This document shows, piece by piece, positions 39,898 to 61,465 of a stretch of 64,000 bases of DNA. Position numbers and translations under genes: made by a program. The notes under the pieces were generated by a model. It was not told where the DNA came from and searched no databases. It was given only the letters and a program-made list of their open reading frames with translations. The stretch is from positions 256,001-320,000 of the forward strand of contig CAVXPZ010000004.1 of assembly GCA_963763775.1 (NCBI GenBank). Reading direction: 5' to 3'. This DNA is from an uncultured Chloroflexia bacterium (lineage in GTDB: Bacteria; Chloroflexota; Limnocylindria; Limnocylindrales; CSP1-4). Position 1 is the stretch's first letter. Every line of letters begins with the position of its first letter.

Positions 39898-39973
39898 GAT
39901 CGACAATGGCAAACCCGTCGCGAGGCGGGGACGCAAAGCCACGGGCCTCTCGCAGGTAGCCGGGCTGCCGATC
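39898..39973 (+). ncRNA. c-di-GMP-I (GEMM-I) riboswitch aptamer
   Basis: GATCG-ACAAT-GGCAAACCCGTC-GCGA-GGCGGGGACGCAAAGCCACGGGCCT...AGGTAGCCGGGCTGC-CGATC; P1 GATCG/CGATC, GNRA loop, G20- and C92-equivalents present. Confidence 0.92.
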
Positions 39974-54149: not shown

Positions 54150-54172
54150 TACATGCCATCGAGCGTCATGAA
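54150..54172. promoter_or_regulatory. Putative WYL-regulator operator upstream of WYL gene
   Basis: TACATGCCATCGAGCGTCATGAA; same TACmTGCCA-N5-yGTCATGwA pattern as 55493-55515. Confidence 0.5.
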
Positions 54173-54190: not shown

Positions 54191-55401
54191 ATGCGTGCGA
54201 GTCGCCTCGTCAACCTGCTGCTGCTGCTCCAGACGCGTGGTGGGCTGACCGCCGCCGAACTGGCCCGCGAGCTCGAGGTCTCGGTCCGCACGATCCATCG
54301 CGACGTCGAGGCGTTGAGCGCCGCCGGTGTCCCGATCTACGCGGACCGTGGACCGCATGGCGGGATCCGCCTCGTCGACGGCTACCGGACCCGACTCACC
54401 GGCATGACCGCCGAAGAGGCCGAGGCCCTGTTCCTGTCCGGCCTGCCCGGCCCCGCGGCGGAACTCGGGCTCGGGACGGTCGTGACCGCGGCCCGGCTCA
54501 AGGTCCTGGCGGCGCTGCCGACGGAGCTGCGATCGCGGGCGTCCAGGCTCGTCGAGCGGTTCCACCTCGACGCCGCCGGCTGGTTCCAGGCGAGCGAGCC
54601 GGTCCCCCACCTCGCCGTGCTCGCCCAGTCCGTCTGGGACGCGAAGCTCGCGCGGATCGAGTACGAGCGCGGCGGCGGGGCGGTCGTGCGCGTCGTGGCG
54701 CCGCTCGGCCTCGTGCTCAAGGGCGGCGTCTGGTACCTCGTCGCGATCACCGACGAGCAGATCCGGACGTACCGGGTGTCGCGCGTGGTCGGAGCGGTCG
54801 TCCTCGACGAGAAGGCGCCCGGCCATCGGACTTCGATCTCGCCGCCTACTGGACGGCGTCGAGTGCCGCGTTCGAGCGCGACATCCCACGCGTCACCGTC
54901 GAGGTCCGCCTCCCCCAGGCGCGCCTGGAACGACTGGCCGACGTCGTGGGGCTCTCGACCGTCCAGGCGGCGGAGCGGCTTGACGACCCCGACCCCGACT
55001 GGGTCCGGCTCCGCTTCCAGGTGAACTGGCCGGATGAGGTCCCCGGCCACATGCTCGCGATGGGGTCGAGCCTCGAGGTGCTCGCCCCCGCCGAGATCCG
55101 GGAGCGGGTCATCGCGACCGCGCGCCGGATCATCGAACGCTACGAGCGCGACGAACCCGAGATCGGGCGCGACGGTCCACAGGCGGACGGCGGCCTGCCC
55201 GGACCCGACGAGGCGACGGACGCGGTGGGCAGAGCAGGTCCGGCGGAGCGTGCCGCGAGGGCGGAGACCGAGGCGAGGCGGCGGGCGCCGTGTGATCCAC
55301 GTGGGCCCGCCGCGCGGCGTCCCGGGCCTCGCGCCGCGCGAGGTGCAGCCATCGCAGATGGTGCGTGGCCTTCATGTCCCGGTCCCTGTCGGACTGACTG
55401 A
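54191..55401 (+). CDS. HTH_11 + WYL domain (YafY-like) transcriptional regulator (frameshift ~54820; 3' end uncertain)
   Basis: MRASRL..TAAELARELEVSVRTIHRD; PLGLVLKGGVWYLVA..RTYRVSR; EVLAPAEIRE. Confidence 0.88.
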
Positions 55402-55426
55402 GTCGGGCGAGTTCCAGCAGGTGCAT
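55130..55426 (-). CDS. Small hypothetical protein (3' end uncertain)
   Basis: SD GAGGAG, ATG at 55426: MHLLELARLSQSDRDRDMKATHHLRWLHLARREA; operator-like motif upstream. Confidence 0.45.
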   Translation of the reverse strand: MHLLELARLSQSDRDRDMKATHHLRWLHLARREARDAARRAHVDHTAPAASPRSPPSRHAPPDLLCPPRPSPRRVRAGRRPPVDRRARSRVRRARSVR

Positions 55427-55492
55427 GGCGGCAGCTCCTCGGCTGGCGGCGATCGTTCGTGGTCGCTTCGTTCCTGTGGAGTGTCCCGCACG

Positions 55493-55515
55493 TACCTGCC
55501 AGGTCTTGTCATGTA
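55493..55515. promoter_or_regulatory. Putative WYL-regulator operator
   Basis: Minus strand TACATGACAAGACCTGGCAGGTA (TGACA-N5-TGGCA near-palindrome). Confidence 0.5.
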
Positions 55516-55689
55516 CGTCCGCGGCGCCGCGCACGTCGGTCGGTCGTCTCGGAAACCGGCCCGCATGCGTGCGGTGACTCCTGGGACCCGCCGCGGGACC
55601 CGCCAGGGCCGCAGACCATCCCGATCGCCTTCCCGTAGGCATCCGGTGACTGCGCGACGCGTGATCACGCGCCGAGACCCGCTGGACCG

Positions 55690-56056
55690 GGAGTAGCAGT
55701 CAGGTCATGACTGGCGGCCGGCGATCGCGGCCGCTAGGGCACTGTCGGCCCGGGGATCGCGCTGCGGTTCTTCGCATCCATTCACCAAGCGATGCCTGGT
55801 GGGCTCGCTGCCCCTCCACGCCGCGAATCCAGGCCGATCACGTCGCCCTAGTCATGGCCGTGGTCGCCCACGAAGCGAGCCGTGTCCAACGAGCCCCGTT
55901 CAGCTGCAGAGGCCCCGTTCCATGACTAGGTGAGAAGCGAACAGTTCAAGCTTCGGCGCCACGGCACTCCCCAGGCGCTGCCTCAGAGGCCCGACACGGA
56001 ACGACCGCCAGGTCCCGAAGGGCCTGACGGTCGAATGAGATCTGACGGACCACCGC
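55690..56056 (-). ncRNA. Candidate ~370-nt multi-helix non-coding RNA, family unassigned
   Basis: Nested helices including a 5'/3' closing stem, cUUCGg hairpin and 11-bp perfect stem; most imperfect pairs are G-U on the minus strand; no credible ORF. Confidence 0.6.
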
Positions 56057-56222
56057 ACTGGCAGTATTGCCGGCTCCGCCGCCGCCCGGCATCCCGCCGG
56101 AGGGTCGACGCGCCGCCGGTCGAAGGTCTCGTTGTCCGGCGGTCCGTTCGTGATGACCACACCGTACGACCCGGTCAGCGATGCGATACCTGCCATCCGT
56201 CCTCTTTCGGCATGGACGAATG

Positions 56223-57827
56223 TCATCCCACCGACGTCAGCGCGGGGCCCGAGGCGGCGACCGGGCCTGAGGCGGCGACCGGGCCTGACTCGCCATGGCC
56301 CGAGGCGGTCTCCACGCCCGATGCCTCGAGCGCCCGGTCCGGCAGCCAGATCAGGGCCACCAGGGCACCCGCGACCGCGAACCCGATGCCGATGAGCGAG
56401 GTCGTCGACATCGCGTCGACGAACGCCGCGCGTGCCGACTCCAACAGCGCCAAGCCGGCCTCGCCGCCGATCGTCCCGGCGACCGCGGCCGCGCCCATGA
56501 GGGAGTCGCGGGCCGCTGCCGCGGCATCGGGCGGCAGCGCAGCCGTCGACGCGGCCATGGCCGAGGCGTACATCGCCGCGAAGAGGCTGCCCAGGATCGC
56601 GACGCCGAACGCGCCACCGATCTCGCGGACGGTGTCGTTCACCGCCGACCCCACGCCGAATTGCTCCTTGGGAAGGGCGCCCATGATCGCGTCGGTGGCC
56701 GGCGTCATCGCGAGGGCGATGCCCGCGGCGAGGACGAACAGCACCAGCCCGACGTGAAGGTCTGACGACGCCACGCCCACCGTGGCCAGGAGGCCCATCC
56801 CCGCGGCGACGACCAGCAGGCCCGTGGCGGTCGTGATCCGCGCTCCGAGGGACGTCGTGGCCTTCGCGGCGATCGGCGAGACGGCGATCACGCCGATGGC
56901 GATCGGGATGAACCGGAGACCCGTGTCGAACGCCGACAGCCCGAGCACGCCCTGGAGGTACTGCGTCAGGAAGAACAGCGCCCCCATCAGCGAGAAGAAG
57001 ACCAGCGTGACGCTCAGGCTGGCGGCCGTGAAGCGCGGGTTCTCGAACAGGTGGACGTCGAGCATCGGGAATTCCACGCGACGCTCCCACGCGAAGAACA
57101 GGCTGAGCAGGACCGCCGCGGCCGCGAGCGAGCCGATGATCACGGGGTCGGTCCAGCCCCGCGATGGGATCTCGATGATCCCGTAGACGAGCGTCACGAG
57201 GCCGCCGACCGAGAGGATCGCGCCGACCGGGTCGAGCGGCACGCGGCCGGGAGCACGGGACTCGGGGATGATCGCCAGAGCCGCGACGATGCCGACGATG
57301 ACGAACGGGATGTTGACGAGGAAGACGGACCCCCAGGCGAAGTGCTCGAGCAGCCAGCCTCCGAGGACCGGGCCGACCACGATGCCGAGGCCGCTCACCG
57401 ACGACCAGACGGCGATCGCCTTCGGGCGCTCGTCGGACTCGAAGACGTCGCCGATGATCGACAGCGTCGAGGGCATCGTGAACGCGGCTCCGAGACCCAT
57501 GAAGGCCCGCAGCAGGATCAGCTGGTCGGCTGTCTGGACGAACGGAGCGAACGCGGACCCGATGCCGAACAGCGCCAGACCGACCACCAGCGCCCGCCGG
57601 CGGCCGTATCGATCCGACAGGGCGCCCGCGACGAGCAGCATGCCGGCGAAGACCAGGACGTACGCGTCGACCATCCACTGGAGCTGGCTGGACGTGGCGG
57701 ACAGGTCGCGGGCGAGCGTCGGCAGCGCGACGTTGAGGATCGTGTTGTCAAGGCTCACGCCGAACAGCGCGAGGATGAGGACGCCGAGGATCCACCATCG
57801 GCGTGCGTGGACCTGGGTGCGGGTCAT
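56223..57827 (-). CDS. DHA2/EmrB-QacA family MFS transporter
   Basis: LDNTILNVALP, WMVDAYVL, SDRYGRR, GPVLGG..WGSVFLVNIP. Confidence 0.93.
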   Translation of the reverse strand: MTRTQVHARRWWILGVLILALFGVSLDNTILNVALPTLARDLSATSSQLQWMVDAYVLVFAGMLLVAGALSDRYGRRRALVVGLALFGIGSAFAPFVQTADQLILLRAFMGLGAAFTMPSTLSIIGDVFESDERPKAIAVWSSVSGLGIVVGPVLGGWLLEHFAWGSVFLVNIPFVIVGIVAALAIIPESRAPGRVPLDPVGAILSVGGLVTLVYGIIEIPSRGWTDPVIIGSLAAAAVLLSLFFAWERRVEFPMLDVHLFENPRFTAASLSVTLVFFSLMGALFFLTQYLQGVLGLSAFDTGLRFIPIAIGVIAVSPIAAKATTSLGARITTATGLLVVAAGMGLLATVGVASSDLHVGLVLFVLAAGIALAMTPATDAIMGALPKEQFGVGSAVNDTVREIGGAFGVAILGSLFAAMYASAMAASTAALPPDAAAAARDSLMGAAAVAGTIGGEAGLALLESARAAFVDAMSTTSLIGIGFAVAGALVALIWLPDRALEASGVETASGHGESGPVAASGPVAASGPALTSVG

Positions 57828-60544: not shown

Positions 60545-61465
60545 TCAGCCGAACGAGGACGCCCGTGCGGCTCCGGCAGCGACGCGCGCCTCGAACCGCT
60601 TCGCGGCCTCGTCGAGGCTGGCCAGGTGCTCGGCGAGGCGTTCGCGTGCGGCCTCGGCCGCCGCATCGAGGCCGGTCAGCTCGAAGATGCCCCAGTGCTT
60701 GATGATCGGCAGCAGGACCTCGTCGCGGTGGATCCGCAGGTCGTAGATGCCGGCCTTCGCGATCTGGGCGGCCTTGCGCATGAAGCCGGGGATCCCGGCG
60801 CCCGGCATCTCGAAGGCGAGCACCTCGTCGACGATCGCGCGGACCGCGGCCGACGGATAGAGCTTGAGCGCCGCCCCGAGGATGTCGCGGTAGAACACCA
60901 TGTGCAGGTTCTCGTCGGCGGCGATCCGGACCATGATCCGGTCCGCGACCGGGTCGTCGGAGTAGCGGCCGGTGTTCCGGTGCGAGATCCGCGTGGCCAG
61001 CTCCTGGAACGCGACGTAGGCGAGGCCGCGCAGCGGGTCGGGCGACTTCCGGTCGTAGCCCTGCTGGAGCTGGGTCATGCGGCCGCGCTCGAGCAGGATG
61101 GGATCGATGTTGCGGGTGACGGTCAGGTAGTCGCGCAGCACGATCGCGTGCCGGCCCTCCTCCGCCGTCCAGCGGCCGATCCAGTTGATCCACGCCCCAT
61201 CGCCGCTGCCGAACATCCCGTGGATCAGCCGGTGGTACGAGGGCAGGTTGTCCTCGGTGAGGAGATTGACCTCGAACGCCGTCTGCGCGACGCCCGTCAG
61301 GCGTGGCTGCTCGGGTGTCCACGGGTCCTTGTCGAAGTCGCGCCCCAGGCGGTACGGGATGTAATCGTGGGGGAACCACTCCTGGGCCACCGCCGCGTGT
61401 CGGTCGTAGAGCCGGCCCGCCTCGGGTTCGAGCTCGATCAGGAGGGCGCGCTCGTCATAGGTCAT
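60545..61465 (-). CDS. Acyl-ACP desaturase (DesA1-like, di-iron)
   Basis: TEDNLPSY, WTAEEGRH, FQELAT, IAADENLH, MPG. Confidence 0.93.
   Translation of the reverse strand: MTYDERALLIELEPEAGRLYDRHAAVAQEWFPHDYIPYRLGRDFDKDPWTPEQPRLTGVAQTAFEVNLLTEDNLPSYHRLIHGMFGSGDGAWINWIGRWTAEEGRHAIVLRDYLTVTRNIDPILLERGRMTQLQQGYDRKSPDPLRGLAYVAFQELATRISHRNTGRYSDDPVADRIMVRIAADENLHMVFYRDILGAALKLYPSAAVRAIVDEVLAFEMPGAGIPGFMRKAAQIAKAGIYDLRIHRDEVLLPIIKHWGIFELTGLDAAAEAARERLAEHLASLDEAAKRFEARVAAGAARASSFG

Follow-up and report, generated by a model that had tools for sequence, protein, structure and literature searches.

A proposed 370-nt structured RNA of an uncultured Candidatus Limnocylindrales bacterium is probably a composite of the end of a conserved small RNA and an orphan spacer

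We found that a large structured RNA proposed for an uncultured member of the Chloroflexota (Candidatus Limnocylindrales; genome G000) is most probably a composite. The DNA analyzed is a 64-kb stretch of contig CAVXPZ010000004.1, referred to here as the window, and coordinates without a prefix are positions in it. A first-pass annotation had described an unassigned, highly structured non-coding RNA (ncRNA) of ~370 nt on the minus strand at 55690-56056. A structured minus-strand ncRNA does exist in this intergenic region, but it is not the RNA described. The RNA that we found is ~160 nt long (~56154 to ~55992), and its first ~100 nt precede the 5' end given in the annotation. The candidate shares only ~65 nt with it, namely the 3' strand of its closing helix, P1, and its terminator hairpin. 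Because conservation ends where the candidate starts, and because bases of the proposed closing stem are engaged in P1, we infer that 55690-56056 consists of the last ~65 nt of a small RNA followed by ~300 nt of orphan spacer. We give this reading a probability of roughly 0.8.

The extent of the small RNA is evident from its relatives. We compared 55600-56220 by blastn to 36 genomes of the same genus and 24 genomes of the sister family. There were strong matches in 23 of the 36 same-genus genomes (E from 1.9e-28 to 3.9e-56), and one further match of 41 nt was at chance level. None of the 24 sister-family genomes had a match. The same-genus matches spanned only ~56230-56044: they ended at 56043-56068 in 22 of the 23 loci and at 55993 in the remaining one (L002). 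Within the matched region, a core of ~100 nt begins ~13 nt after a TAnnnT box and is 77-93% identical across the genus.

The core is not confined to one genus. A 30-nt degenerate core pattern, run on 185,579 species genomes, gave at least 80 stretches, and 79 of the 80 obtained align over the whole core. Their records are labeled Candidatus Limnocylindrales, Limnocylindria, Chloroflexota, uncultured Chloroflexia or uncultured Anaerolineaceae, and several named records share an identical core with same-genus genomes. The stretch from a metagenome-assembled genome (MAG) labeled 'Deltaproteobacteria' (L043) was a chance match and was excluded from the alignments. A covariance model (R1) built from 80 sequences found the RNA in 19 of 151 genomes of the class, G000 included. 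By genus, the counts were 8 of 9 genomes in g1, 2 of 5 in g3, 3 of 3 in g102, 3 of 3 in g103 and the single genome of g105. In other families of the class the model found nothing in f2 (0/6) or f46 (0/49), and one doubtful match of 26.9 bits in f3 (1/50). A match of 26.9 bits, L137, was taken as chance and likewise excluded from the alignments, and a reverse-strand match in L019 (21.6 bits) was dropped. When five more genera of the family (5 genomes) were searched with greater sensitivity, no match exceeded 22 bits (E ≥ 0.03), and none is counted as a member. Judged by these matches, the core occurs in at least five genera of one Candidatus Limnocylindrales family.

The core is predicted to form a rod, and the RNAalifold consensus and the window's own fold concur on it (Table 1). 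The minimum-energy fold of 56154-55992 gives P1, P3 and the downstream hairpin (z = -2.79; 1 of 200 shuffles was as good), and in the predicted fold of the window's copy parts of the internal 'bubble' can form small hairpins. We counted pairs in an alignment of 92 matches, 90 of them distinct; 80 of the rows had been gathered with an exact pattern inside P3. Over 26 pairs in the 90 distinct sequences, 98.9% of cells were paired, compared to 23-61% when the partner was slid. Changes on both sides were seen at 6 pairs (34 cells), which none of 500 shuffles reached, and the P1 pairing was retained in the 90 distinct sequences. The alternations G-C/G-U and U-G/U-A/C-G are compatible with the minus strand only. 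That is, the minus-strand reading of the annotation, argued from G-U pairs, holds for the conserved part (G-U/G-C alternation, U-G pairs) but gained no support for the rest. We considered and rejected a conserved peptide in the core: variable columns number 15, 14 and 17 by codon phase, indicating no 3-nt periodicity, and there was neither a conserved start nor a Pfam match.

Table 1. Features of the small RNA and its surroundings in the window
Feature	Position	Strand	Remarks
Upstream box GTCCATG	56211..56217	-	~45 nt upstream of the -10 box; GTCCAT invariant in 24 aligned sequences, flanks vary
Conserved box GACGGATGGCAGGT	56188..56201	-	21 nt upstream of the -10 box; from the alignment
-10 box TACGGT (TAnnnT)	56161..56166	-	by alignment position
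Conserved core	56045..56147	-	rod: three helices, two open loops
P1	56147-56137 / 56055-56045	-	RNAalifold and window fold
Open internal region between P1 and P2	~17 nt on 5' side, ~14 nt on 3' side	-	
P2	56119-56115 / 56074-56070	-	followed by a small internal loop
P3	56110-56096 / 56090-56077	-	helix under the apical loop
Apical loop GGGAU	56095-56091	-	invariant
Terminator-like hairpin and tail UUCCGUGUCGG	55991..56033 (hairpin 56033-56002, loop CUUCGG)	-	probable 3' end
Body of the candidate	55690..55990	.	species-specific spacer, non-coding, past the terminator of the small RNA
Small-ORF operator/promoter	55480..55513	-	CATGACAAGACC, TGGCAGGT (55501-55494), 8 nt, GACACT (55485-55480)
Small open reading frame (ORF)	55130..55426, ATG at 55426 (MHLLELARLSQSDRDRD...)	-	only N-terminal part conserved
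Inverted repeat CATGCC-N7-GTCATG	54152..54170 (C4:310152)	+	21 nt upstream of the HTH-WYL-WCX ATG (54191)

Sequences upstream of the core look like a promoter region. The TAnnnT box is at the same alignment position in nearly all 80 homologous rows shown, and its place predicts a start of the small RNA near 56154. A generic sigma-70 scan called no promoter, no -35 being kept. Two other conserved boxes lie further upstream. The last 8 bases of one of them, GACGGATGGCAGGT, are a word of the small-ORF promoter (described below), where they stand 8 nt rather than 21 nt upstream of the hexamer, and this box may be a regulator site. The AATACT that the annotation had proposed as the -10 of its RNA is present at 56068-63, but it sits in a variable loop within the conserved RNA and is not retained in relatives.

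Downstream of the core, a strong hairpin was found in 80 of 80 distinct downstream sequences (median best -31.6 kcal/mol, without a shuffle control). The position of the hairpin is constant, and its stem sequences differ among L002, L011, L018, L010, L003 and L004. The relatives are of two types. In the type without repeats, to which the window belongs, a G+C-rich hairpin lies ~15 nt past the core, often with a UUCG-type loop, and has a U-containing tail. In the other type, the core is followed by 1-3 tandem A-rich copies (ACUGAAGAACAA) and then by a second conserved hairpin with the loop GUGGGGAC. About half of the relatives are of this type (L005, L006, L008, L009, L013, L015, L021, L024, L038 and others), and the A-rich repeats may serve as a module that binds protein or acts as a sponge. 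Neither the A-rich repeat nor the second hairpin is present in the window's copy. A remnant of the latter (type A) in the body of the candidate was rejected, with a local alignment z of only 0.6. In some relatives of the type with repeats, for example L079, a plain run of U follows the hairpin. The long hairpin capped by cUUCGg that had been assigned to the interior of a large RNA does exist, but as the probable, terminator-like end of the small RNA and not as an inner domain.

The core is also present in RNA libraries. Metatranscriptome contigs of relatives (80-100% alike), from 4 runs in 4 studies, cover 56044-56159. X18 contained an 84-nt contig within 56046-56129 at a depth of 695 and a 66-nt contig at a depth of 192. 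In X16, X17 and X18, a string that we take to be Illumina adapter abuts the window-equivalent positions 56146-56148. Its position is as expected for short inserts that end at the 5' side of P1. Elsewhere in 55400-56300, including 55400-56043, the four RNA runs gave no contig except one 36-nt piece with 6 mismatches, taken as chance.

Several points weigh against reading the locus as a discrete ~160-nt RNA followed by spacer. The alignment was fitted to the model, and this, together with the rows gathered by the P3 pattern, biases the pair counts towards structure. The majority of pairs are invariant or changed on one side only. An outer helix, P0, is weak: cognate flanks average -7.8 kcal/mol and non-cognate flanks -6.3 kcal/mol. 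P0 is strong in some relatives, and 33 of 78 cognate flanks rank in the best fifth; its overall support is weak and we do not claim it. The tally of downstream hairpins had no shuffle control. The RNA contigs indicate presence in RNA libraries and cannot fix strand, ends or level, and two low-depth contigs from X15 extend upstream through the -10 box. One contig of 352 nt from X17 extends 248 nt downstream of its match to window position 56066. Given these long contigs, read-through, or DNA in the libraries, is possible. None of the RNA runs is known to include this organism, and the lack of cover over the body is therefore uninformative.

It is conceivable that the RNA is longer in this species, with read-through of a weak hairpin and the body as a lineage-specific 3' extension of a multi-domain RNA of ~460 nt. 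The tail of the window's hairpin is U-poor (fewer than 5 U in 8), and a strict terminator scan called no terminator there. The GCGGCCG hairpin near 55733-55713 could serve as a second stop, and the X17 contig just mentioned, which is from a relative, also speaks for read-through. Against this, even L002, the nearest relative, has no conserved body, its similarity ending at 55993; its folding energy is at the level of shuffles; and relatives have unrelated genes or sequence at the same position. We consider the longer RNA unlikely and continue with an end at 56033-56002 and its tail.

The fold proposed for the 370-nt candidate was not distinguishable from chance. All the stems quoted in the annotation are there when 55400-56400 is read on the minus strand, and the minimum-energy fold predicted from the single sequence (RNAfold) employs most of them. 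The 367-nt interval had z = -1.80 on the minus strand, and 7 of 100 dinucleotide shuffles were equally stable. The plus strand of the same interval did better (z = -2.56). The body alone (306 nt, 55690-55995) had z = -1.01 on the minus strand and -1.51 on the plus strand. The perfect 11-bp stem (55930-55920 / 55857-55847) is real, but it is 1 of 10 such repeats in the 64-kb window (perfect, at least 11 bp, loop of at most 100 nt). The two sides of the closing stem, GGUGGUCCGUCAGAUCUCAU (56054-56035) and AUGACCUGACUGCUACU (55708-55692), read as quoted, but 56055-56045 are already the 3' strand of the conserved P1, with 56147-56137 as partner. A closing stem found by eye can in this way borrow one strand of a neighboring genuine helix. 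The apparent multi-domain fold is a chance outcome of sequence that is 67-70% G+C.

The body also had no homologues. None was found for about 55991-55690 by blastn against the 36 same-genus genomes. In 200 genomes of the family there were only matches of 27-58 nt with E ≥ 7.4e-6 (including one of 27 nt in G439), many of which fall on one G+C-rich palindromic stretch. The body did not match any plasmid in a plasmid search, and it was without a homologue in two scans of metagenome contigs. Local alignment to the spacers of relatives gave nothing beyond the small-ORF promoter box. The GCCUGG/CCAGGC and UGUCGG/CCGACA pairings, the 11-bp stem and the GCGGCCG hairpin all lie in this part, and all lack homologues. 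The covariation check for the 370-nt RNA therefore had nothing to examine. With a fold no better than shuffles and a body without homologues, the proposal of a new class of large structured RNA fails, and the 370-nt RNA should stay out of catalogues of large ncRNAs. The annotation was right that the interval has no credible ORF: the ORFs within it have a third-position G+C content (GC3) of 0.60-0.75, compared to 0.89-0.93 in neighboring genes, and no Pfam match. We suggest that the ~300 nt would be a fast-evolving non-coding spacer between the terminator and the small-ORF promoter.

We considered two other readings of the body. One is a decayed inserted gene or mobile element, whose complementary ends would be a relic of terminal inverted repeats. 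Variable content is concentrated in the spacer that separates the core from the WYL gene: this spacer is about 130-440 nt in most relatives and ~885 nt in the window, and it holds extra genes in L002, L011 and L018. The ends of the body pair weakly. However, the body is single-copy in G000, neither a plasmid match nor a flanking direct repeat was found, and translated comparison with 849 ORF segments from the spacers of relatives gave only the promoter box and the L002 hairpin. The single copy and the lack of flanking direct repeats likewise speak against a miniature inverted-repeat element. We regard a decayed insert as improbable, a little more so than a longer RNA.

The second reading concerns short words in the body. 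Between 55430 and 56222 (793 nt) there are 5 CATGAC/GTCATG words, compared to 0.47 expected from the genome rate, a post hoc count. Four of the 5 sit in the body. The words include both arms of the 11-bp repeat and GTCATGAC, a palindrome at 55711-55704. The body could be regulatory DNA, an array of CATGAC/GTCATG half-sites for the HTH-WYL-WCX regulator, with the 11-bp repeat and GTCATGAC as protein sites. The excess of hexamers has a Poisson probability of 1.2e-4, and repeats resembling CATGAC-N7-GTCATG are present at the small-ORF promoter and just upstream of the WYL gene. In contrast, the words were counted only after being noticed, one palindrome contains two of the five as overlapping words, the arms are spaced by 62 nt, unlike an N7 operator, and the sites are not conserved, the whole body being absent from relatives. 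We think this about as unlikely as the longer RNA, and we favor a body that is unconserved spacer.

The neighborhood of the RNA bears on whether it acts in cis. In the window the neighbors are MFS, TetR, HTH-WYL-WCX and PAC2 genes, and within the genus the RNA is always convergent to the HTH-WYL-WCX regulator and/or the PAC2 gene. In four other genera there was no PAC2 or WYL gene within 1.5 kb of the RNA. The neighbors there are LytR_cpsA_psr, an MCP-type sensor, peptidase M14, AhpC/redoxin or DsbD, in either orientation. We considered whether the core could be a riboswitch-like leader acting in cis on the small ORF, with the body as a long expression platform. The small ORF is on the same strand within 150-350 nt downstream of the core in many relatives, and the 3' strands of P1 and of the hairpin are similar, which allows alternative pairings. 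However, a conserved promoter box of its own stands immediately before the small ORF, and other relatives have a convergent gene at once after the core and no ORF. The flanking genes change in other genera, and no Rfam riboswitch matched. What lies downstream is inconstant: it can be the small ORF or a PAC2 gene in convergent orientation, and in other genera the genes are unrelated. We regard a cis-acting leader as very improbable.

Because the small ORF has its own promoter box and the neighbors change among genera, the RNA looks like an independent, trans-acting gene. It would be a transcription unit of its own that starts near 56154, below the TAnnnT -10 box (56166-56161), and is ~160 nt long. 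The transcript is predicted to fold into P1, the open region, P2, the small loop, and P3 with its GGGAU loop, and would end at the hairpin 56033-56002 and a U-containing tail.

The small ORF and its promoter are conserved in part. In many same-genus genomes, homologues of the ORF are found in the stretch that separates the small RNA from the WYL gene, and the N-terminus in relatives is M-x-L-x-E-L-x-R-x-I-Q-A-D-R-E-R-E. It has no Pfam family. Because the frame and the end of the WYL gene overlap, where the ORF truly ends is uncertain; GC3 is 0.74 over the whole frame. The promoter (55513-55480) is the sole part of 55430-56000 that is significantly similar to relatives (z up to 8.8). In relatives (L005-L024) the box reads CATGAC(R)(R)G, 3-4 nt, TG(G/T)CA(G/T)GT, 8 nt, and a cAnnnT-like hexamer. 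The ATG is 6-7 nt after the hexamer in relatives, and the mRNA would therefore be leaderless there; the window's ATG lies ~54 nt further on, behind a GAGGAG box. The layout presumably resembles that of WYL (PafBC)-dependent promoters of Actinobacteria.

The promoter box has just 2 strict matches in the genome, and we rejected a large regulon for it. Because there are only these 2 matches, the regulon is probably very small and controlled by the WYL protein itself. The inverted repeat at 54152-54170 is likely an auto-operator, judging by its position upstream of the regulator gene; a site of the type CATGMC-N7-GTCATG is also found at one other place in the genome (G000 C1:504569). The WYL gene (54191-55401, plus strand) is split over two frames, with HTH_11 and WYL in 54191-55024 and WCX in the 54946-55401 frame. 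The gap between the homologous WYL parts is 131 nt in the window and 132 nt, in frame, in L005. The split is either a real frameshift or an assembly indel error.

Searches with Rfam 15 gave no family for the small RNA. The annotation had called for this comparison, and at gathering score its region had no family. At E ≤ 10 the region gave only noise (E from 1.4 to 5.3), and nothing relevant was found in relatives. Elsewhere in the window there were two hits at gathering score, and no others. One is a c-di-GMP-I-GGC riboswitch aptamer (RF03167) at 39899-39973 on the plus strand (75.5 bits, E = 4.2e-16). The other is a match to ASdes (RF01781) at 61092-61159, also on the plus strand. The ASdes matches score 49-60 bits and recur in five relatives (L005, L006, L008, L009 and L024) at a corresponding place, near 150-330 on the minus strand, with the small RNA of those relatives ~1.2 kb further downstream. 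They are probably part of a conserved coding sequence and not the mark of a small RNA. Signal recognition particle RNA was rejected as the identity of the core, since it is located elsewhere (C4:3165-3429).

The annotation had also suggested an expanded 6S-like or Ms1-like RNA. 6S RNA, which binds RNA polymerase holoenzyme and serves as template for a short product RNA, measures about 150-200 nt and forms a long rod that opens widely in its middle. The small RNA resembles it in being a stand-alone gene with its own promoter and in its plentiful presence in RNA libraries. The predicted fold recalls the 6S rod, with a large open internal region that separates the closing helix from a long terminal helix. 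It differs in that the conserved rod is about 105-125 nt, that is, about one third shorter than the 187-position 6S model (RF00013), and in its limitation to some genera of one family. There was no RF00013 hit at E ≤ 10 on either strand of 55300-56400, and none on 1400-1900 of the relative L005 or in the whole of G000 (87% complete). Canonical 6S RNA was found in 0 of 15 genomes sampled from the class, and RF00013 was found in 34 of 151 genomes searched from the phylum.

Ms1 is about 300 nt long, and like it the small RNA is a structured, abundant RNA with paired ends. The hosts and neighbors differ. PMC9130861 places Ms1 in Actinobacteria, between genes annotated as oxidoreductase and as HAD-IB hydrolase or 'inhibition of morphological differentiation'. 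The host here is a member of the Chloroflexota, the neighbors are the MFS, TetR, WYL and PAC2 genes, and the conserved RNA is ~160 nt. By host and synteny, the Ms1 family is ruled out.

Some small RNAs are restricted to one clade and have their own promoter and intrinsic terminator, for example the 6C RNA of Actinobacteria. The RNA described here is similar to these: it is short, it has its own -10 box, a terminator hairpin and variable neighbors, and its sequence is highly conserved in a limited clade. It differs in that it has no Rfam match and in that one subgroup has 1-3 copies of ACUGAAGAACAA between core and terminator. In the literature library searched, no paper linked Limnocylindr- names with small RNA or non-coding RNA, and a broader search gave nothing relevant among the entries listed. 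The RNA is apparently an undescribed, clade-restricted bacterial small RNA that is absent from Rfam 15.

Our best guess for the role of the small RNA is that of a trans-acting regulatory RNA, presumably as a stand-alone gene. The sequences of P1, of the internal loop and of the apical loop hardly vary, beyond what the helices need. This near-invariance suggests that a fixed macromolecular partner, such as a protein, recognizes the RNA, and it makes simple antisense pairing less likely. Protein binding in particular is a tentative proposal, to which we give somewhat less than even odds. It is far less probable that the RNA is a miniature, fast-evolving analogue of 6S RNA that docks into RNA polymerase where no canonical 6S RNA is detectable. 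We keep a 6S-like role in view because of the open-middle rod, the abundance, and the fact that no 6S RNA was found, and we think it unlikely because the RNA does not match the 6S model, has a short rod and is restricted to some genera of one family. If the RNA were such an analogue, then the earlier 6S-like idea would have been right in kind and wrong in coordinates and size.

The significance of the small RNA is moderate, its distribution being narrow. The RNA is compact and strongly conserved, seems to be abundant, and is specific to a group of uncultured Chloroflexota from soil and sediment. It yields a clean covariance model for annotating these MAGs, and it is a candidate regulator in a class without detectable 6S RNA.

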